In this document: positions 5,360-49,187 of the stretch, piece after piece
How the letters are laid out: each line of letters starts with the position of its first letter
How positions within the stretch are numbered: the stretch's first letter is position 1
NCBI GenBank assembly: GCA_963759955.1
Contig: CAVXCA010000026.1
Span: 3,348-67,347 of the forward strand
DNA: 64,000 nt
DNA from: an uncultured Alphaproteobacteria bacterium
GTDB taxonomy: Bacteria; Pseudomonadota; Alphaproteobacteria; Rhizobiales; Beijerinckiaceae
Reading direction: 5' to 3'
Program-made: the position numbers and the translations under genes
The notes under the pieces: generated by a model
Seen by the model: only the letters and a program-made list of their open reading frames with translations
Told to the model about the DNA's origin: nothing
The model's database searches: none

Positions 5360-5445
5360 TGGTGCCCCTGGCCGGAATCGAACCAGCACTCCTTGCGGAA
5401 CTCGATTTTGAGTTCGAGCGCGTCTACCAGTTCCGCCACAGGGGC
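5360..5445 (-). tRNA. tRNA-Leu(CAA), class II, encoded CCA; one extra base in the anticodon loop
   Basis: GCCCCTGTGGCGGAACTGGTAGACGCGCTCGAACTCAAAATCGAGTTCCGCAAGGAGTGCTGGTTCGATTCCGGCCAGGGGCACCA: acceptor stem, D-loop, long variable arm and TTCGA T-loop. Confidence 0.93.
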
Positions 5446-5628
5446 CCGCGCCAAGCGGTCGCCGCGGCGATATAGAACGGCGGCGGGCGCGCGGTCAACG
5501 GTGGCGGCGGCGGCTTTAGCGCCTCGAATTCAGGAAATCCTCATCATCGCGCGCTATGCCGGCGCGATGGACTTCGCGGCCGCCGGCGGCTAAGCGTGCG
5601 GCGGCGCGGGCGTTCTCATCGGATCGGC

Positions 5629-6210
5629 ATGTTCAAGAGCCTCTATTCCAGGATCATCGCGCTCTCCGAGAGCGCCAACGCGCCTTACGCGCTCGCCGCG
5701 GTCGCTTTCGCCGAGAGTTCGTTCTTTCCCCTGCCCCCCGACGTGATCCTGGCGCCGATGTCGCTCGCCAAGCCGCAGCTCGCCTGGCGCTATGCGCTGA
5801 TCGCCACGATCGCCTCGGTCGTGGGCGGCGTCGTCGGCTATGGCATCGGCGCGCTGCTGTTCGACACGCTCGGCCAGTGGTTGATCCATCTATACGGCTA
5901 CGCCGACAAGATGGCGGCGCTGAAGGAGACCTATGCGCGATGGGGCGCGCTGGTGATCCTCATCAAGGGGTTGACGCCGATCCCCTATAAGCTGGTCACC
6001 ATCGTCAGCGGGCTGCTCGGCTACAACTTCGCGGCGTTCGTCGGGCTTTCGCTGGTGACGCGCGGCGCGCGGTTCTTTCTGCTTGCGGGCGCGCTCAATC
6101 ATTTCGGCGATCCGCTGCGCCTCGCGCTCGAACGTCATTTTGCCGTTTTCCTCGGGCTCATCGCGATCATGGTCGTGGCGGGCTTCGTCATCGCGACGCG
6201 GGTGCTCTGA
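5629..6210 (+). CDS. YqaA/DedA (SNARE-associated) family membrane protein
   Basis: AFAESSFFPLPPDV, ATIASVVGG, GLTPIPYK and RGARFF motifs. Confidence 0.9.
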   Translation: MFKSLYSRIIALSESANAPYALAAVAFAESSFFPLPPDVILAPMSLAKPQLAWRYALIATIASVVGGVVGYGIGALLFDTLGQWLIHLYGYADKMAALKETYARWGALVILIKGLTPIPYKLVTIVSGLLGYNFAAFVGLSLVTRGARFFLLAGALNHFGDPLRLALERHFAVFLGLIAIMVVAGFVIATRVL

Positions 6211-6719
6211 TGTCCTTTGTTGTGGCGGCTCTTCCCAAACGCGCGACCGACAACGCGCTGGCGATCGGCGGGCTCGCCTTCGCGACGATCGTCGCGGCGT
6301 GGGTGTTTCAAGCGCTCGGCTACGCCCCTTGCGATCTCTGCCTCGAGCAGCGTTACGCCTATTACGCCGGCGTTCCCCTCGCCGCCGTCGCATTCGCTCT
6401 GGCGGCGTCCGGAGCCAGCCGCGCCCTAATGCGCGGCGCGTTTTGGCTGCTGGCGCTGATCTTCGTCGGCAACGTCGTCCTGGCGACGTACCATTCGGGC
6501 GTCGAACTCCACCTCTGGCAGGGTCCGACCGCCTGCACCGGCGCGATCGACGCGCCAAAGGGCGCCGGCAACCTTCTTGATCAGCTCGCGACCGTCAAGG
6601 TCGTGAACTGCGACGTCGTGCAGATCAGGATTTTCGGCCTTTCGTTCGCCAACTGGAACATTCTCGTTTCCGGCGCCCTGGCGACGCTCGCCGCGCGCGC
6701 TGCGTTGGCGCGCGGCTGA
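6210..6719 (+). CDS. dsbB: Disulfide bond formation protein B
   Basis: TM helices, PCDLCLEQR (CxxC), and a second Cys pair in the periplasmic loop. Confidence 0.88.
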   Translation: MSFVVAALPKRATDNALAIGGLAFATIVAAWVFQALGYAPCDLCLEQRYAYYAGVPLAAVAFALAASGASRALMRGAFWLLALIFVGNVVLATYHSGVELHLWQGPTACTGAIDAPKGAGNLLDQLATVKVVNCDVVQIRIFGLSFANWNILVSGALATLAARAALARG

Positions 6720-6750
6720 AGGCCGCGATTGCGGCTAAGCGGACCTCGCT

Positions 6751-8280
6751 CTAAATCGGCGCCTTGCCCAGCGGCAAGCCGTTGACCTTCATCATGCCGT
6801 CTGCGCCGAGCTCCCCGATCCAGGTCAACGAGCCGTCGCTTTCGGTCTTGGCTAGGCCCTTGGCCATCGCCAGAACGGGAACCATCTTCTTTTCCGCCTC
6901 CGGGCCGAGGCCCTTCAGCGCCGCCTGCGTCTTGTCGAAATTGCGCATGTGCACGGTGAACGTTCCCGTAGGCATCTTGGCCTGATAGCGGACCTGGCCT
7001 TCGAACGCGATGTCGAGCTGCGGCGCGACGATGTGCGAAGGCGGGATGTCGACGACCAAGGGTCCTGCGCCGGTCAGCTTGGCCCAGACCTTTGCGTCGT
7101 CTTCGTCGGAGATCGGCGGCGCGTCGCCGACCAGATGCATGTCGGCGACCGCTTCCGCGCCCGCGGCCGTCAGATCGAAGCCGCTGACCTTGAACCCGAC
7201 GTCGAACGACGTCGGAACGAGATCGCGGAACATCGCGGGGACGAGGCCGGGCGGCAGCGTGAGGCCGCTCGCGGAGAAATGCTCCTCAAATCGGCTGGCG
7301 GAACCGGCCGCCGCGCCGCCGAGCCCCACCTTGGCGCCGTCGAAGGCGATCGGGCCCTGCGGCGTTTGCACGGTGAGCTTCTGCATTCCGACGTCTTCGT
7401 CGAGCGAGAGCTGGCTGGCGAGCGCCGCCGTCAGCAGCGTCTTGAAAGGCGCCTCGTTGGCGGCGAGTTCCGGTCGCGTCGGATGGGCGACCAGGAAAGC
7501 CCAGAGGTCGAGCAGCGGCTTCGGCTTCACGCCGCCCAATTTCATTTCGACGGACGCCTTGTCGGCCTGGGCGGCGATATTGACAGGCTTGGCGTTTGGC
7601 TTGGAATCGGCGTTCGGGTTGGCGCTCGCATCCGGTTTGATCGCGTTGGGATCGATCGTCATCGTCAAAGCGAGGGCGCCGATGGTTTCCTGCACGTCCG
7701 TCGCCTGCGCGCCGTCGGCGGACGCTTGGCTCGCCGTCGTGGCCTGCATCCCACCAAAATCCACCTTTTCGTCGATGCCGGGCCCCTGCGCGTGCATGGC
7801 GAATTTGTCGCCGCTCGCTTGGCCGCTCCGGACCCAGGAAGTCGCCGGATCGATCACCATGACGTTCTTCAGGCCGCCAAAAGTCATGGTCGAATCGAAG
7901 GTCAAGTCCTTGTGTTTCGAATGGGCGACGATAGTCGGGAACTCGCTCTGTTCGACGCGCCAGGCGCCGTCGTCCTGTTCGATCACTTTGAACTTCATGA
8001 TCGCAGAGTCGTAGCTGACGCCTGTGGCCTTGAGCGGAGCGAGAAGAGCGCCGATGTCGAACGCGACGAGGTAGTCTGCGCTCTCCGGCGTAACGACGAT
8101 CGAAGAAGGGGCGCCGGCGGTCTGTTGTCCGGCATAGGTCGCGAAGAATGCGCTGAGCTTTTGCGCTCCCTCGGGCGTGGCGGGCAAGTCTTTCGCGGCG
8201 GCGCCGACGGTGAGCGCGCCGAGCGCGGCGGTCGCGAGCAACGAGGCGCGCCAAGGAAAGCGAGTCTGGCGAGGCGGCAT
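6751..8280 (-). CDS. Large secreted hypothetical protein
   Basis: Signal peptide MPPRQTRFPWRASLLATAALGALTVGAAA from ATG 8280. The upstream part of the track ORF is a shadow frame. Confidence 0.8.
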   Translation of the reverse strand: MPPRQTRFPWRASLLATAALGALTVGAAAKDLPATPEGAQKLSAFFATYAGQQTAGAPSSIVVTPESADYLVAFDIGALLAPLKATGVSYDSAIMKFKVIEQDDGAWRVEQSEFPTIVAHSKHKDLTFDSTMTFGGLKNVMVIDPATSWVRSGQASGDKFAMHAQGPGIDEKVDFGGMQATTASQASADGAQATDVQETIGALALTMTIDPNAIKPDASANPNADSKPNAKPVNIAAQADKASVEMKLGGVKPKPLLDLWAFLVAHPTRPELAANEAPFKTLLTAALASQLSLDEDVGMQKLTVQTPQGPIAFDGAKVGLGGAAAGSASRFEEHFSASGLTLPPGLVPAMFRDLVPTSFDVGFKVSGFDLTAAGAEAVADMHLVGDAPPISDEDDAKVWAKLTGAGPLVVDIPPSHIVAPQLDIAFEGQVRYQAKMPTGTFTVHMRNFDKTQAALKGLGPEAEKKMVPVLAMAKGLAKTESDGSLTWIGELGADGMMKVNGLPLGKAPI

Positions 8281-8471
8281 GACGATTCCTTTTGTCCTGG
8301 AGACACACGGAGCGCGCGCTCTGAACGCGGCGCGCACGGATATTAGAGGAATTCCCGCCCGTCGTCGCGACTTCATCGTCGCACCGTGTTCGGGTTCGCC
8401 CATCGACGTTACGGTCTGGTGAACGCGCGCCTTCGAAGACCAGCAAGCGCCGGCGGGCGTTTGTCGACTGG

Positions 8472-9377
8472 TTATGGCGCGGGCAGCGCCGGCGCCGGGC
8501 GATTGCCGGGAATTTGCGCGAGCGCGACGCCGGCCTTCACCGCCGCCTGCACTTTCTCGAACGCGCGCACCTCGATCTGGCGCACGCGCTCGCGCGAAAC
8601 GCCGAATTCCGTCGAAAGCTCTTCGAGAGTCACCGGGTCGTCGGCGAGCCGGCGCGCTTCGAAGATGCGGCGCTCGCGGGCGTTGAGCACGCGCAGCGCC
8701 TTCTTCAGCGCGTCGAGCCGGGCGTCGCTTTCCTCGCGATCGGCCAGAACCGTCTCTTGGCTGGCGCTTTCGTCGACCAGCCAATCCTGCCACTCGCCGT
8801 CGCCCTCTTCGCGCAGCGGCGCATTGAGCGAGGCGTCGCCCCCCAAGCGCCGGTTCATGTCGACGACGTCCTGCTGGGCGACGCCCAGGCGCTTGGCGAT
8901 CACGGCGACCTGATCGGCGCGCAGATCGCCGTCGTCGAGCGCCGAAATACGGCTCTTGGCCTTGCGCAAGTTGAAGAACAGCTTCTTCTGGCTCGCGGTC
9001 GTGCCCATTTTGACCAGCGACCAGGAGCGCAAGATGTATTCCTGGATCGAGGCGCGGATCCACCACATCGCGTAGGTCGCGAGCTTGAAGCCTTTGTCCG
9101 GCTCGAAGCGCCTGACCGCCTGCATCAGGCCGACGTTGCCCTCGGAAATGACTTCGCCGATCGGCAGGCCGTAGCCCCGGTAGCCCATGGCGATCTTGGC
9201 CACCAGTCGCAAATGGGAGGTGACGAGCTTATGCGCGGCCTCGCGATCGCCATGCTCGCGCCACCGCTTGGCGAGCATGTATTCTTCCTGCGGCTCCAGC
9301 ATCGGGAACCGTTTGATTTCCGAGAGATAGCGCGAAAGGCCAGACTCTCCGGCAATAATGGGAAGGGCGGCGGCCAT
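8472..9377 (-). CDS. rpoH: RNA polymerase sigma-32 factor
   Basis: LVTSHLRLV, EGNVGLMQAV, YAMWWIRA and RpoH box KMGTTASQKKLFFNLRK. RBS GAGGAG. Confidence 0.96.
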   Translation of the reverse strand: MAAALPIIAGESGLSRYLSEIKRFPMLEPQEEYMLAKRWREHGDREAAHKLVTSHLRLVAKIAMGYRGYGLPIGEVISEGNVGLMQAVRRFEPDKGFKLATYAMWWIRASIQEYILRSWSLVKMGTTASQKKLFFNLRKAKSRISALDDGDLRADQVAVIAKRLGVAQQDVVDMNRRLGGDASLNAPLREEGDGEWQDWLVDESASQETVLADREESDARLDALKKALRVLNARERRIFEARRLADDPVTLEELSTEFGVSRERVRQIEVRAFEKVQAAVKAGVALAQIPGNRPAPALPAP

Positions 9378-9549
9378 CGGGTTCTCCTCAGGGGGAGCGC
9401 ACGCGGCGGCCCGCGCTCCGGCGGTCGCTCGAAGCGCCGCGTCGCTCGATATAGTTCGATCGACCATGGCCGAAAGAGGGCGAAACGCAAGAGTTCGATC
9501 GAGGGTTGGATGACAAATCGTTCATCTCGCGGCCGCGCCCGCAGGGACT

Positions 9550-10659
9550 TCAGCGGCCGATCGGCTCACGTAACGCCTTGACAACAGCAATAAAATTGTC
9601 CGGCGGGGGGCTCTCGAAGAACAGCGCCTCGCCGGTGATCGGATGCTCGAAACCCAGACTGGCCGCGTGCAGGGCCTGGCGTCCCAAGGCCGCCAGCGCG
9701 AGGCGCGCCTCAGCCGACAATTGGCTCGCCTTGGTCTTGAAGCCGGCGCCGTAGACCGAATCGCCGAGCAAGGGATGGCCGATATGGGCGAGATGCACGC
9801 GGATCTGATGGGTGCGGCCGGTCTCCAGCCGGCAGGCGACCAGGCTCGCCGGCCCGAGCGGCCGTTCGACGCGCCAATGGGTGATCGCTTCGCGGCCGCG
9901 ACCCGGGCCGACCACCGCCATTTTCTCACGATGGCGCGGATGGCGCCCGAGCGGCGCGTCCACCACGCCCGCCTTTCCGTCCATCGCGCCCCACACCAGG
10001 GCGCGATATTCGCGCACCAGCGAGCCGGTGCGCCCGTGATCGGCGAACAGCGCGGCGAGCCCTTGATGCGCGGCGTCGGTCTTGGCGACCACGATCAGCC
10101 CGGAGGTGTCCTTGTCGAGGCGATGCACGATGCCCGGCCGCTTCACCCCGCCGATCCCGGAAAGGCTGGCGCCGCAATGGCGGATCAGCGCATTGACCAA
10201 GGTGCCCGAGGAATGTCCAGGCGCGGGATGCACGACCAGCCCCGCGGGCTTGTTGAGGACGACGAGATGGTCGTCCTCGAATGCGATGTCCAGCGCGACG
10301 TCCTCCCCGACGAGTTCCGATTCCTCGGCGGGGGGCGCGACGACGACGATTTTCGCGCCTTCGGCCAATTTGGCCGCCGGATCGCGCGTCTCGACGCCGT
10401 CGACCGCGACCTGTCCGGCTTCGATCAGCCCCTTGAGCCGGGTGCGCGACAGCGCGAGGCGCCGCTCGCCCGCCGCGTGCGCCAAGAAGCGGTCGAGCCG
10501 CTCGCCCGCTTCGCCCGCGCCGACCTCGAAATCGATCGCGCCTTCGGCGGCGGCGAGCGCGGGCCGCTCGGCAGGCGCCGGATCGGGAAGCGCCGGCTCG
10601 GAAGGCGCGCCGTCCGACGCCGCGCGGCTCCACGCGCGGCTCTTCGCCTTGGCGTTCAC
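9550..10659 (-). CDS. rluD: RluA-family 23S rRNA pseudouridine synthase
   Basis: S4 domain, NKPAGLVVHP, HRLDKDTSG and GRTHQIRVH. Confidence 0.92.
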   Translation of the reverse strand: MNAKAKSRAWSRAASDGAPSEPALPDPAPAERPALAAAEGAIDFEVGAGEAGERLDRFLAHAAGERRLALSRTRLKGLIEAGQVAVDGVETRDPAAKLAEGAKIVVVAPPAEESELVGEDVALDIAFEDDHLVVLNKPAGLVVHPAPGHSSGTLVNALIRHCGASLSGIGGVKRPGIVHRLDKDTSGLIVVAKTDAAHQGLAALFADHGRTGSLVREYRALVWGAMDGKAGVVDAPLGRHPRHREKMAVVGPGRGREAITHWRVERPLGPASLVACRLETGRTHQIRVHLAHIGHPLLGDSVYGAGFKTKASQLSAEARLALAALGRQALHAASLGFEHPITGEALFFESPPPDNFIAVVKALREPIGR

Positions 10660-11652
10660 TTAGCCCCCTGGCCGCGCCGGCGCACGCGCGCGGCGGGTTC
10701 GGCGGCCGCCGGGGCGACCAGCGGGCCGAGCGCGGCGACGATCGCTTCGAGGCTCGGCCGCACGCCCGGCCGATGGGCGTCGAGACCGCGCCGCATCGCC
10801 GCCAGATGGGCGGGCTTGGTCCCGCAGCATCCGCCGATGATGCGCGCGCCGGCGTCGACCGCGAGGCCGGCGTAGGCCGCCATCAGTTCCGGCGAGCCGG
10901 AGTAGTGGATATGAGCGCCATGCCATTGGGGTATTCCCGCATTGGCCTTGGCGATCAGGACTCCTTCGGGCCGCGCCTCGCTCATGGCGAGGATCGAGAC
11001 CAAGAGATCGGCGGCGCCGACGCCGCAGTTGGCGCCGAACGCGAGCGGCTGAGGATCGAAATCCGCCGACGAGTTCGGCGAAGGCGGCCGGAGCGAGTCC
11101 CATCATCGTCTTGCCCGCGGTGTCGAAACTCGCGGTCGCGGTATAGGGCATCCCCAAGCGGCCTGCCGCGCGCGCCGCGGCGCGGATTTCATCAGGCGAG
11201 GACATAGTCTCGATCCACACGACGTCGGCGTCGCCTTCGCGCAGCCCTTCGATCTGTTCGACGAAGATTTCTACGGCCTCGTCCTCGGCGAGCGGGCCGA
11301 GCGGCGCCAAGAGATCGCCGGTCGGCCCGAGCGAGCCGGCGACGACGACGCGGCGCCCCGCGCCTTTCGCCACGGCGCGCGCATTCTCAGCCGCCAATCG
11401 ATTGAGTTCGCGCGTTCGCCTCTCGAGGCCGTGCAAGGCCAGGCGGCGGCGGTTGCCGCCGAAGCTATTGGTCAGGATGATGTCCGCGCCGGCGTCGACG
11501 AAGCTTTGGTGCAGCGCCCGGATCGCCTCGGGACGGGTGGCGTTCCATAATTCTGGGTTGTCGCCCGCAGTCAACCCAGCCTCAAACAAGTTCGTCCCCG
11601 TCGCGCCGTCGGCGAGCAGCGGACGACCCTCGGCGAGCAGAGTCTGGAGCAT
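10656..11652 (-). CDS. bmt: Homocysteine S-methyltransferase family protein (Bmt/MetH N-terminal type); +1 frameshift at 11058-11063
   Basis: LLADGATGT, AGADIILTNSFG and ETMS in one frame. GANCGVG, NAGIP and IIGGCCGT in the next. Removing one base restores a 332-codon frame. Confidence 0.85.
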
Positions 11653-11953
11653 GGATTCCTCGTGAAGGGGGCGAGCAGCGGCCGCGAACGGAAAGCTCCC
11701 CGCGCTGGGCAGATTTAGGCGCGGCTGGCCGCGATGACAAGCGGGCGTGGCAAACCTTGATCGAGCGGGCGCGCCGGGCTCGGCTCCGCCTTGATTTGAA
11801 CGGTGTGTTCCGGTATTCCGTAAGGCATCGATTACCGGCCGACGACTTGGCCCCGTATCTCGCGATGCGTGCCGACGAACCTCCCTGCATCGATATTCGC
11901 GCCGTCGCCGGCGCGCCAATGCGTATCGACACTCTCATATACGGAACTCTCCG

Positions 11954-12163
11954 ATGGCAACGGGTACGGTGAAGTGGTTCAACGCCACCAAAGGGTATGG
12001 CTTCATTCAGCCTGACGACGGCGGCAAGGACGTATTCGTCCACATCAGCGCGGTCGAGCGCGCGGGTCTTCGCGAACTCAATGAAGGCCAAAAAGTCTCT
12101 TACGAAATCGTCGCGGATAAGCGCACTGGCAAGTCCTCGGCCGGAAATCTCAGCGTCGCTTAA
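11954..12163 (+). CDS. cspA: Cold-shock protein
   Basis: [17 protein letters not shown] and DVFVHISA. Confidence 0.97.
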
Positions 12164-12280
12164 CAAGACCCTCCGTCCACTCGGCGGACCCGACCCAAGG
12201 CCCCGGCGACAAGCGGTGGGCTCTTGCCTATTGTGACGCCTTTCGCGCGGCGCGCCAGCGCCCAGCGGGGAGGACGAAGA

Positions 12281-13804
12281 ATGTCGAGCGAAGGGCGCGC
12301 CAGCGAGACTTTTCTCGGGCTGGACATCGGCACGTCGTCCGTCAAGGCCCTGCTGATCGACTTCGATCAACAGGTCGTAGCGGACGTTTCCGTCCCGTTG
12401 TCGCTGTCGCGGCCGCATCTTTTGTGGAGCGAGCAGAACCCTCTCGATTGGGTCGAAGGGGTCGAGGCCGCCGCCGCCGCGGTTCGGCGTCACGCGCCGC
12501 AGGCGTTCGCCCGTCTTGCCGGGATCGGTCTTTCCGGGCAGATGCACGGCGCGACGTTGCTCGACGCCAACGACGCGCCGCTGCGGCCGGCGATTCTTTG
12601 GAATGACGGCCGCGCCTTCGCCGAATGCGCCGAGCTCGAGCGCCGCGTTCCAGAGTTTCGCCGCCGCGCCGGCAACATCGCGATGCCGGGCTTCACCGCG
12701 CCCAAGGTTCTCTGGGTCGCCGCGCACGAGCCGGAGGTGTTCGCTGCGACCGCCCGCGTCCTGCTGCCCAAGGATTTCGTTCGCCTGCGCTTGTCCGGCG
12801 AGGCCGTTTCGGACATGTCCGACGCCTCGGGCACGCTCTGGCTCGACATCGCGCATCGCCGCTGGGACGACGAGCTTCTCGCCGCCAGCGGGCTCAAGCG
12901 TTCGCAAATGCCGCGCCTGGTCGAGGGCTCGGCGGTTTCGGCCGTGCTCTCCCCCGCCGTCGCGAGCGCCTGGGGCCTCGCAGGGCGGCGCATTCCCATC
13001 GCCGGCGGCGCCGGCGACAACGCGGCCTCCGCAGTCGGCGTCGGCGCGATCCAAGCCGGCGCGGGTTTCGTTTCGCTCGGCACGTCGGGCGTGATCTTTT
13101 CGGCGACCGATCGCTTCGTCAGCCTGCCCGAGCGCACGCTGCACGCATTCTGCCATGCGCTGCCGGGTCGTTGGCACGCCATGGCGGTGATGCTGTCGGC
13201 GGCTTCCGCGCTCAGCTGGATTGCGAAAACGCTCGGCCGCGCCGACGACATCGCCGGCTGCGTCGAAGCCGCCGAGGCCTTCGCTCGGACGCCGGACGCC
13301 GTCGCGGCGGCGCCGGTTTTCCTGCCCTATCTCAGCGGCGAACGCACGCCCCACAACGATGCGGCCGCCACCGGGCTATTCGCGGGCCTGCGCGCCGATC
13401 ACGGCGCGGACGCGCTGATTTACGCGGTGCTCGAAGGCGTCGCGTTCGCCTTCGCCGACGGCGTCGAGGTGCTCGCCGCGGCCGGCGCGCGGCCGCGCCA
13501 GTCGATGTTGGTGGGCGGAGGCGCGCGTTCCAGTTTCTGGGGCCAGATGATCGCCGACGCCACGGGGCTGACGATCGACCTCGCCGCCGGGGCGGAAGCG
13601 GGCGCGGCGTTCGGCGCGGCGCGGCTGGCGATGCTGGCGGCGGGGGCCGGCGACGAGGGCGCTGTCTGCCGCCGTCCCGCGATCGAGCGGCAATTCGTCC
13701 CCGACGCGGCGAGCGCGGCGCTTCACGCCCCGCGACTGCGGCGTTTTCACGCGCTCTACGCCGCGGAGAAAGAGATTCGCGAGGCCAAATTCGCCAGGAT
13801 GTGA
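12281..13804 (+). CDS. xylB: Xylulokinase (FGGY kinase)
   Basis: LGLDIGTSSVK, GQMHG, ILWNDGR, GDNAA, PYLSGERTP and GGGARS. RBS GGAGG. Confidence 0.9.
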   Translation: MSSEGRASETFLGLDIGTSSVKALLIDFDQQVVADVSVPLSLSRPHLLWSEQNPLDWVEGVEAAAAAVRRHAPQAFARLAGIGLSGQMHGATLLDANDAPLRPAILWNDGRAFAECAELERRVPEFRRRAGNIAMPGFTAPKVLWVAAHEPEVFAATARVLLPKDFVRLRLSGEAVSDMSDASGTLWLDIAHRRWDDELLAASGLKRSQMPRLVEGSAVSAVLSPAVASAWGLAGRRIPIAGGAGDNAASAVGVGAIQAGAGFVSLGTSGVIFSATDRFVSLPERTLHAFCHALPGRWHAMAVMLSAASALSWIAKTLGRADDIAGCVEAAEAFARTPDAVAAAPVFLPYLSGERTPHNDAAATGLFAGLRADHGADALIYAVLEGVAFAFADGVEVLAAAGARPRQSMLVGGGARSSFWGQMIADATGLTIDLAAGAEAGAAFGAARLAMLAAGAGDEGAVCRRPAIERQFVPDAASAALHAPRLRRFHALYAAEKEIREAKFARM

Positions 13805-13880
13805 TCGCAAGACCTAACTCTTCTTGAAGACGAGCGACCTAAGCTGCGCCGCTGTCTTCGATCGCTTTGGAGTACGAGTC

Positions 13881-14912
13881 ATGGCCTTCCTGACTTGGCT
13901 GCGGGCGGGAATTCTCGACCGACTGGTGCAGACTTTCGGCGCGACGGCGCCTTACGGCGCGACGGCGTTGGCCGGCGCCCTGACCTGCTCGGTCGCCTAT
14001 TACGTCTGGCGCCGGCGCTCGCGCGGCCGCCCGATGAGCGCGAGAGGCTTCGTGCGCTGGCTCTTCGCCGGGCGCATCTTCTGGAATCCTTCCTCGCTCA
14101 TGGACATGCGCCTGTGGATTCTCAACGGGCTGGTGCTCGCCTGGGCTTACGGCTTCCTCGCGGTCGGCGCCGTCTTCTGCAAGAACGCGGTCGCGGCGGC
14201 GATGACCGACGCGTTCGGTTCGCATCAGCCGACCGTCTGGCCGGCCTGGACGGTGCTGACCATGGCGACGCTGTTCGAATTGCTCGCCTATGAACTCGCC
14301 TATTGGTTCGGCCATTACCTCTTCCACCGCATTCCCGCGCTATGGGAGTTCCACAAGGTGCATCATTCGGCCGAGGTGATGACGCCTTTCACCGAGCTGC
14401 GCCAACATCCGATCGAAATCCTCGCGTTCGTGAACCTGGTCGCCATCGCCACCGGCACGGTGTTCGGCGTGATGACCTACGCCTTCGGGCCCGGCGTCCA
14501 GCCCTTCACCTTGCTCAACAGCAATATCCTGCTGATGCTGTTCCTCATCACCTACGGCCACCTGCGCCATACTCATATGTGGATCTCGTTCACCGGTCTG
14601 GCGGGCAAGATCTTGCAGAGCCCGGCCCATCATCAGCTCCATCACTCCGACAACCCCTTGCATTGGGACAAGAATCTCGGCTTCGCGCTCGCGGTGTGGG
14701 ACTGGGCGTTCGGGACGCTGTACATTCCACAGCCGACCCGCGAGGCCATCCGCTTCGGCGTCGGCCCGACCCAGGGCGAGTTCAGCACCGTGACGCGCAA
14801 TTACGTGCTGCCGTTCGTCCGTTTCGGCGAGCACGTCGCCAAAGCCGCGCGCCATCTCGTCCCCGCGGCGCACGGCGCGATCGGAGCCGATGCCGGCAAG
14901 TTGCGCGGCTGA
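13881..14912 (+). CDS. Sterol desaturase / fatty acid hydroxylase superfamily membrane protein
   Basis: His boxes HYLFH, HKVHH, HLRH and HHQLHH. KNLG...WDWAFGT. Confidence 0.88.
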   Translation: MAFLTWLRAGILDRLVQTFGATAPYGATALAGALTCSVAYYVWRRRSRGRPMSARGFVRWLFAGRIFWNPSSLMDMRLWILNGLVLAWAYGFLAVGAVFCKNAVAAAMTDAFGSHQPTVWPAWTVLTMATLFELLAYELAYWFGHYLFHRIPALWEFHKVHHSAEVMTPFTELRQHPIEILAFVNLVAIATGTVFGVMTYAFGPGVQPFTLLNSNILLMLFLITYGHLRHTHMWISFTGLAGKILQSPAHHQLHHSDNPLHWDKNLGFALAVWDWAFGTLYIPQPTREAIRFGVGPTQGEFSTVTRNYVLPFVRFGEHVAKAARHLVPAAHGAIGADAGKLRG

Positions 14913-15786: not shown

Positions 15787-15800
15787 AACGCGAGGCCTTT

Positions 15801-39397: not shown

Positions 39398-40303
39398 ATG
39401 AATTCCGCCTTGGACTGGGATGAGTTTCGGTTGGTCAAAGCCATCGCCGACGCCCGCTCCCTCGTCGGCGCCGCGGAGGCGCTGGGCCTCAATCACTCGA
39501 CGATTTTCCGTCGACTCGGCGCCATCGAAACCGCGATCGGCGCGCGGCTGTTCGAGCGTTCGCGCACCGGCTACCAGCCGACCGCGGCGGGCGACGAAAT
39601 GATCGGGCTGGCGACCGCGATGGCCGATTCGATCATCGAGTTCGAGCGCCGAGTCGCCGGCCGCGACGTCAAGCCGACCGGGGAATTGCGCGTCACCATG
39701 GTCGACGCCTTCGCGGTTACGTTGTTGCCGCCGATCATTGCGCGTTTTCGCACAGTCAATCCCGGCGTCCAGCTCGACCTGATCGTCGCCGCGCAGACCC
39801 TCAATCTTTCGCGCCGCGACGCCGACGTGGCGATTCGCACCACCAACGAGCCGCCCGAGGCGCTGGTCGGTCGGCGCATCTGCGTCTGTCGTTGGGCCGT
39901 TTACTGCTCGGCGGAGGTCGCGGCGGAGTTCGGCCCCCGGGTCGTCGCGGCGGCGCCCTGGATCGGCTTTGGCGAGAATTTCGCGCCTCCTTTGGGCAAA
40001 CGTTGGATCGACGAGAACGTCGGACCGCGCCGTCAGGTCTGCCGCGTCAATTCCGTGCTCGGGATGGCGGAGGCGACGGCGGTCGGCGTCGGCGCGGCGA
40101 TCCTGCCGTGCTTTATCGGCGACCAGCGCCCCGAACTGACCCGCATCGGCCCCCCACAGCCCGAACTCGACGTCGATCTGTGGATCCTCACCCACGCCGA
40201 CCTGCGCCATTCCGCGCGCGTGCGCGCCTTCATGGATTTGGCCGGCGCCGAATTGGTCAAGATGCGCAAGATCATCGAGGGCTCCGCGGGGGAGCCGGGC
40301 TAA
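39398..40303 (+). CDS. LysR family transcriptional regulator
   Basis: N-terminal HTH (NHSTIFRRL...LFERSRTGY) and LSRRDADVAIR. Confidence 0.92.
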   Translation: MNSALDWDEFRLVKAIADARSLVGAAEALGLNHSTIFRRLGAIETAIGARLFERSRTGYQPTAAGDEMIGLATAMADSIIEFERRVAGRDVKPTGELRVTMVDAFAVTLLPPIIARFRTVNPGVQLDLIVAAQTLNLSRRDADVAIRTTNEPPEALVGRRICVCRWAVYCSAEVAAEFGPRVVAAAPWIGFGENFAPPLGKRWIDENVGPRRQVCRVNSVLGMAEATAVGVGAAILPCFIGDQRPELTRIGPPQPELDVDLWILTHADLRHSARVRAFMDLAGAELVKMRKIIEGSAGEPG

Positions 40304-41715
40304 CCAGGGCTTCGCCCCGCCGCCAACGGGGCTGCGCCGGCGCTCCTTGCGCGTTCGATCCGGGCGGCGCGCGTGCGCATCGTCACCAGTTCCTCCGCCG
40401 CGGTCGGATGGACCGCCATCGTCGCGTCGAGGTCGGCCTTTCTCGCGCCCATCTTGACGGCGATGGCGAGGACTTGGATCATCTCGCCCGCTTCGTGGCC
40501 GAGGATATGCGCGCCGACCACGCGATCGCTCGCCGCGTCGACGACGAGTTTCATGATCGTGCGCTCCTTGCTGCCCGAGAGCGTCGCCTTCATCGGCCGG
40601 AAGTTGGTCTTATAGATGTCGACGACTTCGTAGCGCTCCACCGCCTCGGCCTCGGTGAGGCCGACCGAGCCGATCTCCGGGGTCGCGAACACCGCGTGGG
40701 CGACGTTGTCGTGATCGACGATCCCTTCGCCCCCGCCGAACAGGCGATCGGCGAGCGCATGGCCCTCGCGGATCGCCACCGGCGTCAGGTTGATTCGATT
40801 GGTCACGTCGCCGACCGCATGGATCGAAGGAATATTCGAGGCGGAGACGCGATCGACGATCACCGCGCCGACCGCGTCGAGCGCCACCCCGGCGGACTCC
40901 AGCCCGAGGCCCTTGGTGTTGGGCCTGCGGCCGGTGGCGACCAGGACCTGGTCGACCTCGATCGCCTCGCCGTCCGAGAGGGCGACATCGAGGCACGCGC
41001 CGCGCTTCTCGATCCGCGTCGGCAGGCAGCCAAACCGCAGCTTCACGCCGGCGCGGGCGAGCTCGTCGCGCAAGCCCTCGCGCATGTCTTCGTCGAAGCC
41101 CCTGAGCACATTGCTCGCGCGCATGACCTGGACCACTTCGGCGCTGAGCCGCGCGAACAGCGAGGCGAATTCGACCGCGATGTACCCCCCGCCGACAACG
41201 AGCAGCCGACTCGGGAACGTCGCGAGGTCGAAAATCTCGTTGGAGGAAATGGCGAGCTCGAGACCGGCGATCGAGCCCGGGAATTCGGGCCTCGCGCCCG
41301 TTGCGACAAGGATATGCCGCGCGCTGACGGTTCGCCCGCCAGCGAGCCGAACGCGATGGGCGTCGATCACCTCGGCGCGCTGTTCGATCAGCTCGACGCC
41401 GGCCTTATCGAGATTGGCGCGATAGACGGCGGAGAGGCGCGAAATCTCGCGCTCCTTGGCCGCCACCAGCGTCGGCCAATCGAAACGCGTCGGCCCGACG
41501 CTCCAGCCAAACCCTTCGGCGTCGGAAAAATAGTCGGCGAAGCGGCTCGCATAGACCAGCAGCTTCTTGGGCACGCAACCGCGGATCACGCAGGTTCCGC
41601 CGACGCGGAATTCCTCGGCGACGACGACTTTCGCGCCGTGCTCCGCCGCAATTCGCCCCGCCCGAACCCCACCCGATCCGGCCCCGATGACAAAAAGGTC
41701 GACGTCGAACGCCAT
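40300..41715 (-). CDS. gor: Glutathione-disulfide reductase
   Basis: IGAGSGG, GGTCVIRGCVPKK and HPTAAEE. Confidence 0.93.
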   Translation of the reverse strand: MAFDVDLFVIGAGSGGVRAGRIAAEHGAKVVVAEEFRVGGTCVIRGCVPKKLLVYASRFADYFSDAEGFGWSVGPTRFDWPTLVAAKEREISRLSAVYRANLDKAGVELIEQRAEVIDAHRVRLAGGRTVSARHILVATGARPEFPGSIAGLELAISSNEIFDLATFPSRLLVVGGGYIAVEFASLFARLSAEVVQVMRASNVLRGFDEDMREGLRDELARAGVKLRFGCLPTRIEKRGACLDVALSDGEAIEVDQVLVATGRRPNTKGLGLESAGVALDAVGAVIVDRVSASNIPSIHAVGDVTNRINLTPVAIREGHALADRLFGGGEGIVDHDNVAHAVFATPEIGSVGLTEAEAVERYEVVDIYKTNFRPMKATLSGSKERTIMKLVVDAASDRVVGAHILGHEAGEMIQVLAIAVKMGARKADLDATMAVHPTAAEELVTMRTRAARIERARSAGAAPLAAGRSPG

Positions 41716-41755
41716 GGCGCGAACCTTTCCTTGGCGAGCGTATCGAGCGCGTTCG

Positions 41756-42278
41756 CTAGAAATCAGTGCCCTTCTTCTTCATTTCCTCGTGGGCGCGAGC
41801 GAGGATGTCCGTAGACAACTGCTCGCGCCAGGCGCGCGCCAATTGGCCGACTTGCTGAACCAGCACGGGTTGGGTCGCGAGATATTTCTTGCCGCTCGGG
41901 GTGTCGAAAAACGTCACGGTGTCCTTGAGCTCCTGCTCGGTCATCCGGCTTGCGAGAAACTTCGCCGAATTCCGCGACGATGCCTTGCTCGGACTTGACG
42001 AATTCGGGCTCGATGGCCACCAGCGTCGCCCGCAGGGAGTCCTTCAGCTCCGGCCGGGTCGCCGTAATGTTGCGGTCGAGACCCGAGAGCATTTCCGGCA
42101 CCATCATATCGAGCGACGGTTTGATGCCGACGTCGACCAGGATCTGGTTGGCGTAATTGAGCGCGGCGGGCGTCGGCTCGTCGGCGCGCGCGCCGGCGAT
42201 CGAGATCGCCAAGACGACAATGGCGGCGAGCGACGCTTTGATTTTCGATTGGGACGAGAACACGATTTCACTCTCCAT
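41756..42278 (-). CDS. DUF2059-like exported protein; +1 frameshift at 41967-41972
   Basis: Signal peptide. The C-terminus TEQELKDTVTFFDTPSGKKYL is in the next frame. Removing one base gives 174 codons. Confidence 0.75.
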
Positions 42279-42292
42279 TGCAGTTGTGGCGA

Positions 42293-42994
42293 TCAGGCGA
42301 TCGCGCCGATGGTTTCGACGCCGTTCGGGCCCGCGATCACGGCGGCGCTCGCCAGCCCGAGGAACAGGCCATGGTCGACGACGCCAGGAATGAACGCGAG
42401 CGCGCGATCGAGCGCTTCCGGGTCAAAGATCGCGCCGAAGGCGCAATCCAGGATGTAATGACCGCCGTCGGTGACGAAAATTCGATCTTCGCGCCGGCGC
42501 AGTTCGATTGGCCCGGTCAACCCGAGAGCCGCGCACGCGCGCTCGACGCGCCGACGCGTCGCGGCGAGGCCGAAGGGGACGACTTCGATCGGCAGAGGAA
42601 AGGCGCCCAGGCGCGCGACGCGTTTCGTCGAATCCGCGATCACCAGCATGCGCCGGGAAGACGCCGCAACGATCTTCTCGCGCAGCAAGGCGCCGCCGCC
42701 GCCTTTGATCAGACGCAGCGAGGAATCGATCTCGTCGGCGCCGTCGACGGTGAGGTCGAGTTCGGGAATCTCGTCCAGCGTCGCCAGCCGCACGCCGAGC
42801 GCCGCCGCCTGACGGAAAGTCGCCTCCGAGGTCGGCACGCCTACGACGTCGAGGCCTTGCCGAACGCCTTCGCCGATCAGATCGACGAAATGACGCGCGG
42901 TCGAGCCGGTGCCGAGACCGAGCTTCATTCCCGAGCGCACGAAGGTCATCGCGCGTTCGGCGGCTTGACGTTTGAAGACTTCGCTGTCCGACAA
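42293..42994 (-). CDS. rpiA: Ribose-5-phosphate isomerase A
   Basis: GLGTGST, DGADE and [11 protein letters not shown]. Confidence 0.96.
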
Positions 42995-43124
42995 AGGCCG
43001 AAACTCCGCAATCGCGTTGGGCGCGCGCGTCCACTCGCAAGCGTCGGCGCCCCGCCGGGGCGTCGCGCGCCGATGGCCTAGCGGCTCGGCGGCAGAAAGG
43101 CAACTCGCGGCGAGGCCGGATCGC

Positions 43125-44426
43125 CTATCGGCGCGCCGCCTCGACGACGTCTTCGAAGGTCGTCAAACCCGTCCGCGGCGCGTTGACGAGAACCGCCATA
43201 TTGCCGGGCGCGTGCTGGTTCTTCCACATCTTGGTGTGCGCAAGAGGAATCTTGTCCCAGGGGAAGACTTCCGACATGCACGGGTCGATGCGACGGTCGA
43301 TCACGAATTTGTTGGCCGCCGCCGCCTGCTTGAGATTGGCGAAATGCGACCCCTGGATGCGCTTCTGCCGCATCCAGACGAAGCGGGCGTCGAACGTGAG
43401 GTTGAAACCGGTCGTGCCGGCGCAGAACACCACCATGCCACCGCGCTTGACGACGAAACAGGACACCGGGAACGTCTGCTCGCCCGGATGCTCGAACACC
43501 GTGTCGACGTCCCGCTTTCCCGTGATGTCCCAGATCGCCTTGCCGAACTTGCGCGCGCCCGCCATGAACGTGGCGTATTCGGGCGAATTGACCTTGGGCA
43601 ACTGGCCCCAGCAGGAAAATTCCTTGCGATTGATGGCGCCCTTGGCGCCGAGCGACATCACGTAGTCGCGCTTCGATTCGTCGGAGATGACGCCGATCGC
43701 ATTGGCGCCCGCCGCCGCGCAAAGCTGGACTCCGAACACGCCGAGCCCGCCCGAGGCGCCCCAGACCAGAACGTTGTCGCCCGGCTTCAGCCGATGCGGC
43801 TCGTGACCGAACAGCATGCGGTAGGCGGTGGCCAGCGTCAGCGTGTAGGAGGCGCTTTCCTCCCAGGTCAGGTGCTTGGGCCGCGTCATCAGCTGGCGAT
43901 CCTGCACGCGGCAGAACTGCGCGAACGAGCCATCGGGAGTCTCGTAGCCCCAGATGCGCTGCGAAGCGGAGAACATCGGATCGCCGCCGTTGCATTCCTC
44001 GTCGTCGCCGTCGTCCTGGTTGCAGTGGACGACCACCTCGTCGCCGACCTTCCAGCGCTTCACCTTCGATCCGACCGCCCAGACGATCCCCGCCGCGTCC
44101 GATCCGGCGATATGGAAGGGATGCTTATGAACGTCGAGCACCGAGACCGGCTCTCCGAGCGCGGCCCATACGCCGTTGTAGTTGACGCCGGCGGCCATCA
44201 CGAGAACGAGCACGTCGTGGCTGTCCAATGGCCAAGTGGGCACGACCTCGACCTGCATCGACTGCTCGGGCGGTCCATGCCGGTCTTTGCGCACGACCCA
44301 GGCGTACATCGACGCCGGCACGTGACCGAGCGGGGGAATTTCGCCGATTTCGTAAAGATCTTTCTTCAAAGTCGATGCGGCGTCCGGAAGGTCCGGCGCC
44401 GCGCCGCCCGCTGGGCGAGTGTTCAT
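43125..44426 (-). CDS. ccr: Crotonyl-CoA carboxylase/reductase
   Basis: [29 protein letters not shown] and [20 protein letters not shown]. Confidence 0.95.
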
Positions 44427-44710
44427 GGCGTTCCTCGTATGGCGCGGCTTGGCGCTGAGAGGCCCTGCGCCCAACCCGTGAGCGCGAGCCTCGATTTGCA
44501 ACGGTCTTATTGCACCGCAGCATCAACCATGACGCGGCGCACGGCTAAAATCAATCCCACTTTTGGCTCTTCGAGCGCTACGCATTTCGTGCGGTCATGT
44601 TCACCGGCCGCAAAGGAATTTCAGGATATGAGGGGCGCGGGACGCGCCGTGCGCCGTAACGTCCCATGCGGAACTTGCCGCGCCGCAGTGCGGAACGAGG
44701 AAAAGCCGAA

Positions 44711-45025
44711 ATGGCCGCCATGTCGCCCTTTTTCACCATGATCAACTCGCTCGAAGGGTTCGAGTTCGTCTGCTTTTGGCTCGCGGCGTTCGTCGGATTC
44801 GTCCTGATCGGATTTCTGCTCGACTACCTCATGGGTCGGCAAGGTTTCGGCCCTTACGTCAACTCCGTGCTGGCGGTCGGCGGCGTGTGCGCCGGGCTCT
44901 ACGTGCGATACAACTATTGTCTGCCGTATGTTCGCTATGAGCCCTATTTGAGCTTCGGCCTGTTGTTCACGGCGCCGGTCTTCCTGGTCCTGATCTTGAG
45001 CTTCATGCGAACGCGGGTCTTTTAG
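44711..45025 (+). CDS. Small membrane protein (about 3 TM)
   Basis: Three hydrophobic stretches and host-like codon usage. Confidence 0.7.
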   Translation: MAAMSPFFTMINSLEGFEFVCFWLAAFVGFVLIGFLLDYLMGRQGFGPYVNSVLAVGGVCAGLYVRYNYCLPYVRYEPYLSFGLLFTAPVFLVLILSFMRTRVF

Positions 45026-45082
45026 GCTCGAACGATCGAACGCGGCGCTTTTTCATTCCCGCAGCTTTGATCGTTCGACGCG

Positions 45083-45864
45083 CTATGACCGCGGAATATC
45101 GGGCTTCGACGCGCCAACGCGCATGACGGCCTGGGTGCGGTTCGCCGCGTGCAGTTTTCTCATGATGCTGCGCAGATGCACCTTGACCGTGCTTTCGGAC
45201 ATTTGCAGATCGAAGGCGATGTTCTTGTTTGCGCGACCGGCGCGCAAGCTGTTGAGAACATCGCGTTCGCGCGCGGTGAGACTTTCTCGAGGGGCGCGGG
45301 CAATTCGTTCGGGCGCGCGGCGGCGGGCGGGACGGCGTCCTGCGGCGGGCGCTGTGCGGCGAGAGCTCGACCGTTCGCTTCTTCCTGGCGATCGAAGAGC
45401 TCGGCCGGCAGAAAGCTTCCGCCCGCCGCCATCAGCCTGACCGAGGCGACGGCGATCTCCACGCTTGCGCTCGGCATCACGATCCCAGCGACGCCCAGCG
45501 TTGTGACCAATTTTGCGACGGCCGCATTGTCGGCATGCAGATAGGCGCCGATCGGCGATCCCGCGGCGACGCGGCGCAACGTTTCGAAGGCGCCGCGCAA
45601 CTGCGCCGGTTCGCATCCCGAGCGCGGATCAAGGCCGATCAGCACGAGGCGGGCAGGTCCCGGAACGACTTCGTCGACGGAGGTCGCGCCCTCGACCGCC
45701 ACGTCGGGGAGGAACGACACGAGCGCGTACGCGAGGCACTCGCGAAGCCACTTTCGCGATTCGATCAGGACGATGCGCGCGGCCTGCGGTTTCCCGCTTG
45801 GCGCGGCGGGGCCTCCTTGGGTCTGCCGACTGCCGCCGGCCGGATTTCGATCGCGCTCGCTCAT
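45083..45864 (-). CDS. LuxR/NarL-type regulator with atypical receiver domain; frameshift at about 45280-45286
   Basis: Receiver-like N-terminus in ORF 45160..45894. The HTH (LTARERDVL...NKNIAFDLQMSESTVKVH) is in ORF 45083..45616. Confidence 0.85.
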
Positions 45865-46499
45865 TCGCCCAGGCCGCGCATTTTGCGATCCCACTCGAGA
45901 GTATTTGTTTCCAAATCAGAGACGGCGCCCACGGCGCGGCGTCCAATTCTCGGTTGATCTCCAGGCGCGGCGCAATTTGCGGGCCACCGCCACGTGTAAC
46001 GTTACGGGACGAAAGCGATTTCGATCGATCCGCCTGAGGGCCGCAACTTTCACAACGCGTCGACGATCTTTGTCGCGCCGCCAAGTTGCCGACCGGCTCT
46101 GTTCGCGTGCTTGGCCACGCCGACGAAGGCGGCCGCCTCCGGCCGGTCGGAACGACAGTCGATCGGGGCCTATCGTCGCGCACCCCACCGATGAAAACGT
46201 AACTCCGCGGCACTGGCGAAAGTGCTGAAATCAAAGATGGTTATGCCCAGCGTTCTATCCCGGGAATAGCCCTAGGCGCGTGGCTACAATGGACAAATAT
46301 GCGTCCATATTGCTGACATAATTATTGGTAAAATGACCGATGTTGGCATTTTGTAACGGCTCAATCGCATCGAATGTGCGATACAGCTTGTGTACTGTTC
46401 ATATCCAGTATTAACACCCTCATCACGAGCCAACAATAATCGTCGATAGCCATACTAGTGTGGTTGTTGTTCCGTCTATTGTAGACAAGGAGTGAGTAT

Positions 46500-46985
46500 T
46501 TGAGACGAACACTACTGACGGCCGCGCTCATGGCGGCTTTTTTGTTGCCGGCAGCCGCGCAGCCGAGCGGACAACCGGAAACCCCGATGACTTCCGATTC
46601 AACTGCTGGTTCGTCTGCGCACTGGAGCGCAGGAGGCGACGTGCTCGTCGAGGCGGGGCGATGGATCGGTTCGGGCAACATGACAGGCACATTCGGCCCG
46701 TGGTGCGCGGACGCGGTTTCCTTCTGGCTGCGCCGCACCGGCCACCGGCCGCTCGCCAATCGTATGGCCGCCTCGGCGCTCGCCTACGGCCGGCGCCTGC
46801 CCGGCCCGCAAGCCGGCGCGATCGCGGTGATGAGCACGCACCGCGCCTGGGCCGGCCATGTCGGCCTTGTCGAGGGCGTCGAGCCGGACGGCTCGATCCG
46901 CCTCATTTCCGGCAACTGGGGCCACCGCGTCGCCGAGGCGGTCATCCCGCGCAACTCCGTCGTCGCGTTCGTCGAGGTGCAATAA
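46500..46985 (+). CDS. Secreted CHAP-domain (TIGR02594-like) amidase/peptidase
   Basis: Signal peptide, PWCADAV (Cys), GHVGLV (His) and SGNW. RBS AAGGAG before the TTG. Confidence 0.8.
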   Translation: MRRTLLTAALMAAFLLPAAAQPSGQPETPMTSDSTAGSSAHWSAGGDVLVEAGRWIGSGNMTGTFGPWCADAVSFWLRRTGHRPLANRMAASALAYGRRLPGPQAGAIAVMSTHRAWAGHVGLVEGVEPDGSIRLISGNWGHRVAEAVIPRNSVVAFVEVQ

Positions 46986-46998
46986 CAGGACGGCGGCG

Positions 46999-47040
46999 AG
47001 AGCGAGGCCCGTTTGCTTTGAAGCGCGGCCTCGCTCTTAA
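46999..47040 (+). terminator. Putative terminator hairpin after the CHAP gene
   Basis: AGAGCGAGGCC / GGCCTCGCTCT inverted repeat. Confidence 0.45.
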
Positions 47041-47191
47041 GTTCCGGGCGCGGGGCGCCTTGCCGAACCGCCGCGCCGATCGGCCAGCCTGCTAGCCCTC
47101 GCCGCGCTTTTCTGCGATTGTGCTGTGCACAAAATCGAGCGAGACGAAACGGAGACGGCGCGCAATGCAAGCGGGTGGTAAATCGGAAACG

Positions 47192-49187
47192 ATGGCGGCG
47201 CGCGACAAGCCGTGGATTTTCCGCACCTACGCTGGCCATTCCAACGCGGTCGAATCCAATCGCCTCTATCGCGGCAATCTGGCCAAGGGCCAGACCGGCC
47301 TCTCCATCGCCTTCGATCTGCCCACTCAGACTGGCTACGACAGCGATCACCCCTTGGCGCGCGGCGAGGTCGGCAAGGTCGGCGTCGCGATCTCCCACAT
47401 CGGCGACATGCGGGCCCTGTTCGAGGGCATACCGCTCGCCTCGATGAACACGTCGATGACGATCAACGCCACCGCCCCCTGGTTGATGGCGCTCTACGTC
47501 GCCGTCGCCGACGAACAGGGTGCGCCGCGCGCCCAGCTTCAGGGCACCACCCAGAACGACATCATCAAGGAATATCTCTCCCGCGGCTCTTACGTCTTCG
47601 CGCCCGGCCCGTCGCTGCGCCTGACCAAGGACCTGATTCTGTTTTGCGCGCGCGAAACGCCGAAATGGAACCCGATGAACGTCTGCTCCTATCATCTCCA
47701 GGAAGCGGGAGCGACGCCGGTGCAGGAGCTCAGCTACGCGTTGGCGACGGCGATCGCCGTTCTCGACCGCGTGCGCGAGTTCGGGCGAAGTCGACGCGGC
47801 CGGCTTCGCCAACGTCGTCGGCGGCATTTCGTTCTTCGTCAACGCCGGCATGCGGTTCGTCACCGAGCTCGCCAAGATGCGCGCGTTCACCGAGCTGTGG
47901 GACGAAATCACCCGCGAACGTTACGGCGTCGCCGATCCCGCCAAGCGCCGCTTCCGCTACGGCGTGCAGGTCAATTCGTTGGGGTTGACCGAGCAGCAGC
48001 CCGAGAACAACGCCTACCGCATCCTGATCGAGATGCTCTCGGTCGTGTTGTCGAAGAAAGCGCGCGCCCGCGCCGTCCAGTTGCCGGCGTGGAACGAGGC
48101 GCTCGGCCTGCCGCGTCCGTTCGACCAGCAATGGTCGCTGCGCCTGCAGCAGATCATGGCGTTCGAGACCGATCTTCTGGAATACGGCGACATTTTCGAC
48201 GGCAGCGCCGTCATCGAGGACCGCGTCGCCGCGTTGAAACGCGAGGCGATGGCCGAGCTCGCCGCGATCGACGCGATGGGCGGCGCGATCGCCGCGATCG
48301 AATCGGGCGAAATGAAACGCAAGCTGGTCGAATCCAACACCCGCCGGCTCGAGGCGATCGAACGCGGCGAACAGCGCGTCGTCGGCGTCAATTGCTTCAC
48401 GACGAGCGAGCCCTCGCCGCTGATGGCGGGCGACAGCGCGATCCTGACGCTCTCGCCCGAGGTCGAGGCGGAGCAGGTCGCGCGCCTGAAGGCATGGCGC
48501 GCGACGCGCGACGAATCGCGCGTGGCTGCGGCGCTCGAAGCCTTGCGCGCCGCGGCCAAGAGCGGCGCCAATATCATGCCGGCCTCGATCGAGGCCGCCA
48601 AGACGGGCGTGACGACCGGCGAATGGGGAGCGGCGCTGCGCGCCGAATTCGGCGAATACCGCGCCCCCACCGGCGTCAGTCCGCGGGCGCGCCAGGAGGC
48701 CGCCGATCTCGACCCGCTGCGCGGCGAGGTCGAGCGGGTGTCGCTCAAGCTCGGCCACCGCTTGAAGTTCCTGGTCGGCAAGCCGGGGCTCGACGGCCAC
48801 TCGAACGGCGCCGAACAGATCGCGGTGCGCGCCACCGACGCCGGCATGGACGTCGTCTACGACGGCATTCGCCTCACCCCGCAAGAGATCGTCGAGCGGG
48901 CCAAGGCCGGGGTCGATTGCGTCGGCCTGTCGATCCTTTCAGGATCGCATCTGGCGATGACGCACGAAGTTCTGGAGCTCATGAAGGCGGCGGGTCTTAG
49001 CCGCGTGCCGGTGGTCGTGGGCGGCATCATCCCCCCCGACGACGCCGAGAAATTGCGCGCCGCCGGCGTCGCGGCGGTCTATACCCCCAAGGATTTCGCC
49101 ATCAACGGCATTATCGGCGACGTCGTGGCGCATGTCGAACGCGGGTTCGAGGAGCGGGCGCGGAGCGCGGGAGCAGGGTTGGCGTGA
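47192..49187 (+). CDS. ecm: Ethylmalonyl-CoA mutase (MeaA); +1 frameshift at 47777-47782
   Basis: PWIFRTYAGHS, SIAFDLPTQ, RFRYGVQVNSLG and B12-binding GLDGHSNG. Removing one base gives 665 codons. Confidence 0.93.

Follow-up and report, generated by a model that had tools for sequence, protein, structure and literature searches.

One-base insertions at GANTC sites in the draft genome of an uncultured alphaproteobacterium are probably consensus artefacts linked to methylation

Results

Genes interrupted at GANTC sites

We examined a 64,000-nucleotide stretch of DNA (the window) from the draft genome of an uncultured alphaproteobacterium, in which a tRNA gene and four protein-coding genes are broken by small insertions or frame changes. 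The window corresponds to positions 3348-67347 of contig C26 of the genome that we will call G000, and all positions are in window numbering unless a contig is named. A preliminary description of the window had listed five words at which these genes are broken and had proposed that all of them are altered GANTC sites. We read all five words where they had been placed (Table 1), and the list covers every break in a protein-coding gene of the window, plus the break in the tRNA gene.

Table 1. Interrupted genes in the window, and two genes elsewhere in G000 that are discussed in the text. Frame switches are from a codon-usage frame caller; phase +1 is an inserted base.
Feature	Position	Strand	Frame switch (phase)	Observation
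tRNA-Leu(CAA), 8-nt anticodon loop	5360..5445	-		Additional base within GAGTTC (5410-5415); GAGTC in relatives
Homocysteine S-methyltransferase ('bmt'-like)	10656..11662	-	11064 (+1)	One additional base within GAAATC (11058-11063) splits the gene
DUF2059 gene	41757..42294	-	41960 (+1)	One additional base within GAATTC (41967-41972) splits the gene
LuxR/GerE-family regulator	45083..45784	-	45278 (+2)	+2/-1 frame change near GACTTTC (45280-45286)
Ethylmalonyl/methylmalonyl-CoA mutase family gene ('ecm')	47184..49187	+	47781 (+1)	One additional base within GAGTTC (47777-47782) splits the gene
rpoB (single copy)	C40:107331-111423			Split at GACTTC
CcrM (397 amino acids)	C56:372529-373716			Full-length match to Caulobacter CcrM

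At four of the sites, removing one base restores the reading frame or a 7-nt anticodon loop, and relatives have one base fewer (except for one tRNA, described below). The bmt-like gene has one base more than all 10 of the relatives that could be aligned, with the gap inside the GAAATC hexamer. The DUF2059 gene has one base more than its counterparts in G005 and G002, which are the closest relatives of G000, with the gap inside GAATTC. In ecm, the additional base is seen relative to three relatives, which have GATTC, GAATC, or CAATC there. G005 and G002 lack the additional base at all four of these sites and also in rpoB. The hexamers GAANTC and GANTTC make up 1.6% of the window, so finding four of four insertion sites inside them has chance odds of roughly 1e-6 to 1e-7, which is far beyond chance.

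The pieces of the broken genes fit together. The Pfam coordinates continue across the break both in ecm (MM_CoA_mutase positions 43-233, then 242-512, then a B12-binding domain) and in the bmt-like gene (S-methyl_trans positions 1-191, then 197-281). The C-terminal piece of the DUF2059 gene matches positions 8-59 of the 60 positions of PF09832, and the LuxR gene has a GerE match.

The frame caller also reported a switch at 51316 (+1). We rejected this one: it is a gene boundary, with a start codon and a ribosome-binding site, and there is no net insertion or deletion (indel) relative to G005 or G002.

The fifth word, GACTTTC in the LuxR gene, had also been interpreted as an altered GANTC site, with an A-run deletion as the alternative, and we do not retain it as a GANTC case. 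First, across the genome, GANTTTC occurs at just 1 of 106 switches of the +2/-1 type (the LuxR break itself), compared to a background of 1.5%, so there is no enrichment. Second, the best homologue (72% identity), which is also the only one that can be aligned, splits the gap in two: there are separate 1-nt gaps at GAGA[C]TTT and at GGG[G]. Two errors, an error in a homopolymer, or a real lesion could each explain the break. Any sequence matching the gene was found in only 4 of 60 other genomes of the genus, and G005 and G002 have no orthologue at the syntenic place. The genes that flank this region (45083-45894) are about 4.3 kb apart in G005, versus about 2 kb here. Given the differing interval and the absence of a syntenic orthologue, the LuxR region is accessory DNA.

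Insertion-type frame switches across the genome

We then looked for frame switches throughout G000, which is a draft of 4.62 Mb in 110 contigs with 66% G+C. Codon usage was modelled from 485 long open frames of G000, every contig was assigned a frame path with seven states, and a switch was kept only if the nearest in-frame stop was 60 nt or more away. (A position-wise score for one-base shifts over the whole genome was dropped because gene boundaries, such as stop codons and ATGA overlaps, dominated it.) The 30 nt around each switch were compared to a background of 40,000 random coding positions. This gave 410 internal switches, of which 304 are of the insertion type and 106 of the deletion type.

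In an unbiased test of all k-mers, the top 6-mer at the insertion-type switches was GAGTTC/GAACTC (17.4% versus 1.7%, p = 6e-36). More broadly, 95 of the 304 insertion-type switches lie within 15 nt of GAANTC or GANTTC, versus 7.07% of random coding positions (p = 1.3e-35). No such enrichment is seen among the deletion-type switches (8 of 106, against the same 7.07%). An enrichment of frameshifts at GANNTC had been suggested as a check on the window, and it is there, but only in the classes in which GA is followed by a second A or TC is preceded by a second T: GAACTC is enriched 10.5-fold, GAAGTC 3.5-fold, GAATTC 3.3-fold, and GAAATC 2-fold, while the remaining six GANNTC classes stay at 0-1.3 times the background.

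Changing any one of the specified bases abolishes the signal (HAANTC, 0.98-fold; GAANTD, 1.22-fold; GBANTC, 1.13-fold; GAAN[A/C/G]C, 0.4-1.3-fold; CAANTG, 0.78-fold). As single-base departures lose the signal and enrichment is seen whichever base N is, the specificity is exactly G-A-N-T-C. GATC (the Dam-type site) and other palindromic control words are not enriched at the frame switches of G000. Once the GANTC-linked events were removed, we looked for a further error motif and obtained only words from ribosome-binding sites and start codons, which are false positives at gene boundaries, plus a weak GACTC.

The motif-linked events are evenly distributed among contigs and have no strand bias, whether by contig strand (52 versus 44) or by coding strand (51 versus 45). 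They are not at homopolymers, as runs of at least 4 are not enriched around them. The deletion-type events have a weak association with G/C runs (1.7-fold, p = 0.008).

CcrM and the comparison to related genomes

GANTC is the target of CcrM, the cell-cycle adenine methyltransferase, and G000 encodes a CcrM of its own (Table 1). The protein matches Caulobacter CcrM (PDB 6PBD) over its full length, including the C-terminal domain (E = 1.5e-157). Its score against the NCBIfam CcrM model, 604 bits, is under that model's strict, Caulobacter-tuned cut-off of 830 bits. The motif of the errors is thus the same as the specificity of an enzyme that the genome itself encodes.

To see which switches reflect additional bases, we turned to G005, the closest relative (about 88% DNA identity); 1.16 Mb of it was compared, and 0.8 Mb aligned. 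Isolated gaps of 1-2 nt were swamped by genuine intergenic indels, so we kept only the gaps that coincide with frame switches. The alignment covers 51 of the switches in G000, and 36 insertion-type switches coincide with a net gain of one base in G000. GAANTC or GANTTC is present at 20 of these 36 confirmed insertions. When we read the alignments, about 5 of the 16 confirmed insertions without the motif were intergenic or poorly aligned, which puts the motif's share at about 56-65%.

G000 reads CGGTTCCG at two insertions outside GANTC (G000:C50:63331 and G000:C101:52579), in place of the CGATCCG or CGGTCCG of G005. A second error-prone word (GGWCC-like) might be behind them, although the hint comes from two cases only.

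The same caller found 21 insertion-type switches in the 1.16 Mb of G005, or 18 per Mb versus 66 per Mb in G000, and only 1 of the 21 is near the motif. We therefore take the rate in G005 to be the caller's false-positive floor, and G005 does not carry the signature. Yet G005 has an intact CcrM that is 93% identical to that of G000. (CcrM is intact in 30 of the 31 genomes that we sampled from the genus.) Because G005 has this enzyme and no signature, the difference between G000 and G005 is technical, not biological.

The signature does reappear in G007, which is a different species. In 390 kb sampled from this assembly, there are 36 insertion-type and 2 deletion-type switches, and 7 of the insertions are at the motif (19% versus 6%). 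In some other assemblies from the genus (G006, G009, G014, G034, and others), completeness is low despite a small number of contigs (one has 4.8 Mb in 6 contigs and is 61% complete), and the matches to CcrM are truncated. This pattern is that of long-read assemblies laden with indels, and it suggests that such errors are widespread in the long-read assemblies of this genus.

Sequence context of the events

Not all GANTC sites are equally affected. With the events oriented as GAANTC, N is C in 55% of them, versus 16% of GANTC sites. The preceding base is C in 74% (versus 46%), the base before that is T in 43% (versus 20%), and G is preferred at +6. Overall, about 0.1-1.6% of half-sites are hit, and in TCGA[A]CTCG(A) this rises to 8-11%.

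This dependence on the flanks raises the question of whether methylation is needed at all. The additional bases might be a long-read artefact of sequence context only, if the basecaller has difficulty with k-mers around TCGACTCG and the resemblance to the motif of CcrM is coincidental. The absence of the signature from G005 fits this idea as well, as it implies that CcrM alone is not sufficient for the signal. But a context effect does not readily account for the need for all four specified bases of G-A-N-T-C or for the enrichment of every value of N. Also, published work links errors at GANTC to models that are unaware of methylation and reports fewer of them with methylation-aware models (PMC12392509, PMC12710330). 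We consider an effect of context only to be improbable, although it is the strongest competitor to an artefact linked to methylation.

The tRNA-Leu(CAA) gene

The tRNA gene is the only one that ARAGORN found in the window, and ARAGORN left its type uncalled. Its anticodon arm reads CTCGA, ACTCAAAA, TCGAG, which is to say that the loop has 8 nt. G005 and G002 (97-99% identical), the other well-aligned relatives from the same genus except G007 and G009, and the more distant G023 all have GAG-TCGAG instead, which gives the canonical 7-nt loop CTCAAAA. In the remaining distant relatives a 7-nt loop fits too, with a less clean alignment. This gene is the sole tRNA-Leu(CAA) that we found in G000. 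It is also the only case in which the change is unambiguous: as read from the alignments, GAGTC became GAGTTC, with the doubled base at what would be the position of the methylated adenine of one strand.

The tRNA-Leu(CAA) of G007 has the identical extra T (locus L063, G007:C27:176393-176481), and G009 has a substitution within the GAGTC of the same tRNA.

An 8-nt anticodon loop brings to mind programmed recoding, as tRNAs with expanded anticodon loops are classical suppressors of +1 frameshifts. In principle, the tRNA could read four-base codons and so suppress the +1 insertions, and G000 does have two tRNA genes with 8-nt loops (the second is described below). However, the coding strand carries the motif in 51 events and the template strand carries it in 45, so the events share no single four-base codon. 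Furthermore, the tRNA's own additional base is itself inside a GANTC site and is absent from the closest relatives. We find recoding scarcely credible.

Two features near these tRNA genes or resembling them are worth recording. An integrase-like frame (3981-5183, minus strand) adjoins the tRNA-Leu gene of the window. And outside the window, at G000:C66:219-304, there is a second tRNA-Leu-like gene with an 8-nt anticodon loop (ttacaggt), which ARAGORN calls tRNA-?(Cys|Leu)(acag). It has two mismatches in the stem and no GANTC at the site, so a different kind of assembly error is probable here.

Essential genes are affected

The genes with additional bases include some that the organism should not be able to do without. 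At the break in rpoB, G000 reads ...GAAGACTTCGATC...; if one base is left out, this becomes ...GYNFEDSILLSERIV..., which brings back the ...GYNFEDSILLSE... sequence. We take this to be a conserved motif of RpoB. In a 500-nt stretch around the site, 28 of 29 genomes from the genus have GAATC or GAGTC. G010 has the same additional base as G000 (locus L234, G010:C3:254878-255376), and four other assemblies have single-base insertions of their own in this stretch, at G/C runs. A random set of 20 motif-linked events presumably includes the beta subunit of RNA polymerase, Mfd, and a NifB-like protein (as we recognized them by sequence). Each of the breaks that we examined consists of one additional base; the coding signal is intact on either side of it, and the Pfam coordinates continue from one side to the other.

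We considered whether these are true pseudogenes, as would result from gene decay. We rejected this, as rpoB, Mfd, and the sole tRNA-Leu(CAA) are among the genes affected, the lesions are single, and the coding signal is intact.

A related idea, which the preliminary description had raised as an alternative, is that the insertions are real and that CcrM sites are a methylation-linked mutational hotspot. About 75-100 genes would then be recent pseudogenes or would vary within the population. The additional bases are, after all, present in the deposited sequence, and a hotspot would also predict the identical insertions at the same sites in the assemblies of other species. Against this, a single-copy rpoB and the sole tRNA-Leu(CAA) are hit; both pieces of the broken genes keep their full coding signal; the nearest relatives do not have the insertions; and the signature as a whole is absent from G005, which has the same CcrM. 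A cell could not live with about 100 fresh, fixed frameshifts at one motif in addition to one in RNA polymerase, so such a consensus is not the genome of a living organism. So, we think that a hotspot of fixed mutations is very unlikely. A weaker form of the idea is that the additional bases are real in just part of the population, with GANTC, and especially TCGACTCG, as a true hotspot of +1 slippage that recurs in tRNA-Leu (G000 and G007) and in rpoB (G000 and G010). We give this form just as little credence.

Discussion

We propose that the additional bases are an artefact of a long-read consensus, linked to methylation of GANTC, and that the genes are intact. We would put the probability of this explanation at roughly 0.87. 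It agrees with what had been suggested from the window, namely that these are consensus errors in genes that are probably intact, and it is supported by the break in rpoB, by the recurrence of the same insertions in assemblies from other species, and by the clean sequence of G005 despite its CcrM.

The errors could arise as follows. The draft would have been assembled from reads of native DNA, most likely nanopore reads only. CcrM would methylate GANTC sites, and the N6-methyladenine would distort the signal, leading the basecaller or the polisher to add a base at the motif. The consensus would then sometimes gain one spurious base inside GANTC, giving GAANTC, or GANTTC if on the other strand. 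At modest coverage, the wrong call might win at about 1% of the sites overall and at 8-11% of those in the worst context, TCGA*CTCG. The real genes for ecm, the bmt-like protein, the DUF2059 protein, tRNA-Leu, rpoB, and others would all be intact.

The sequencing platform may be judged from relatives. The nearest named homologues of ecm are from 'MFD...bin' genomes and from a Roseiarcus sp. Nanopore reads were the only input for the MFD (Microflora Danica) genomes, which were assembled with Flye and went through one round of Medaka 1.8.0 (PMC12313526).

Several observations weigh against our explanation or limit its reach. First, the motif is found at only about one third of the raw +1 calls and at 56-65% of the insertions that the reference confirmed, so other sources of error coexist with the GANTC-linked one. 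The original statement that all of the gene-breaking insertions fall in GANTC sites holds for the +1 breaks of the window, but not for the genome. Second, where the third position of a codon varies, GASTC with its A doubled looks the same as GAWTC with an inserted C or G. Third, the marked dependence on the flanks could also be produced by a k-mer effect that has nothing to do with methylation. Fourth, the nanopore origin of the assembly, although likely, is inferred, as are the methylation of GANTC in G000 and its effect on the signal. Fifth, the published errors at GANTC are mostly substitutions, and a signature dominated by insertions is not explicitly described in those reports.

Nevertheless, errors of this kind have precedents. 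Nanopore assemblies of Brucella have errors associated with GANTC, and CcrM was found in those assemblies (PMC12392509). Agrobacteria have GANTC-associated nanopore errors as well, and methylation-aware models reduce them (PMC12710330). As in G000, the errors in Brucella and in agrobacteria are at the CcrM motif, affect a minority of its copies, are mostly in coding sequence, and persist after polishing that is unaware of methylation. The differences are that those reports describe mainly substitutions, with a handful of GANTC cases, in the genomes of isolates (PMC12392509, PMC12710330), whereas G000 has a one-base insertion (GAANTC/GANTTC) in roughly 75-100 genes of a single draft metagenome assembly. 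We view the insertion form in G000 as a variant of the same known artefact.

The nanopore errors at Dam (GATC) and Dcm (CCWGG) sites of Gammaproteobacteria reflect the same principle, in that a modified base in a short palindrome biases the consensus (cited in PMC12392509). The motif and the enzyme are different, however, and GATC is not among the enriched words in G000. The homopolymer indels of long-read assemblies (PMC9262707, PMC13543314) are likewise single-base frameshifts, and they coexist with the GANTC-linked events in G000 and its genus. The GANTC-linked events are unlike them in that the events are not surrounded by an excess of runs.

The finding does not reveal new biology, but it matters for how these genomes are read. 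In G000, roughly 75-100 genes (including ecm, rpoB, a nifB-like gene, and a tRNA gene), and many more genes in sister assemblies, are prone to being annotated falsely as pseudogenes, and the same indels lower the completeness scores of the genomes. A frame switch at GAANTC or GANTTC in a genome that encodes CcrM can serve as a rule for quality checks and repair, and it favours re-polishing with methylation-aware models. Finally, the footprint would be an indirect read-out of GANTC methylation in an uncultured alphaproteobacterium.

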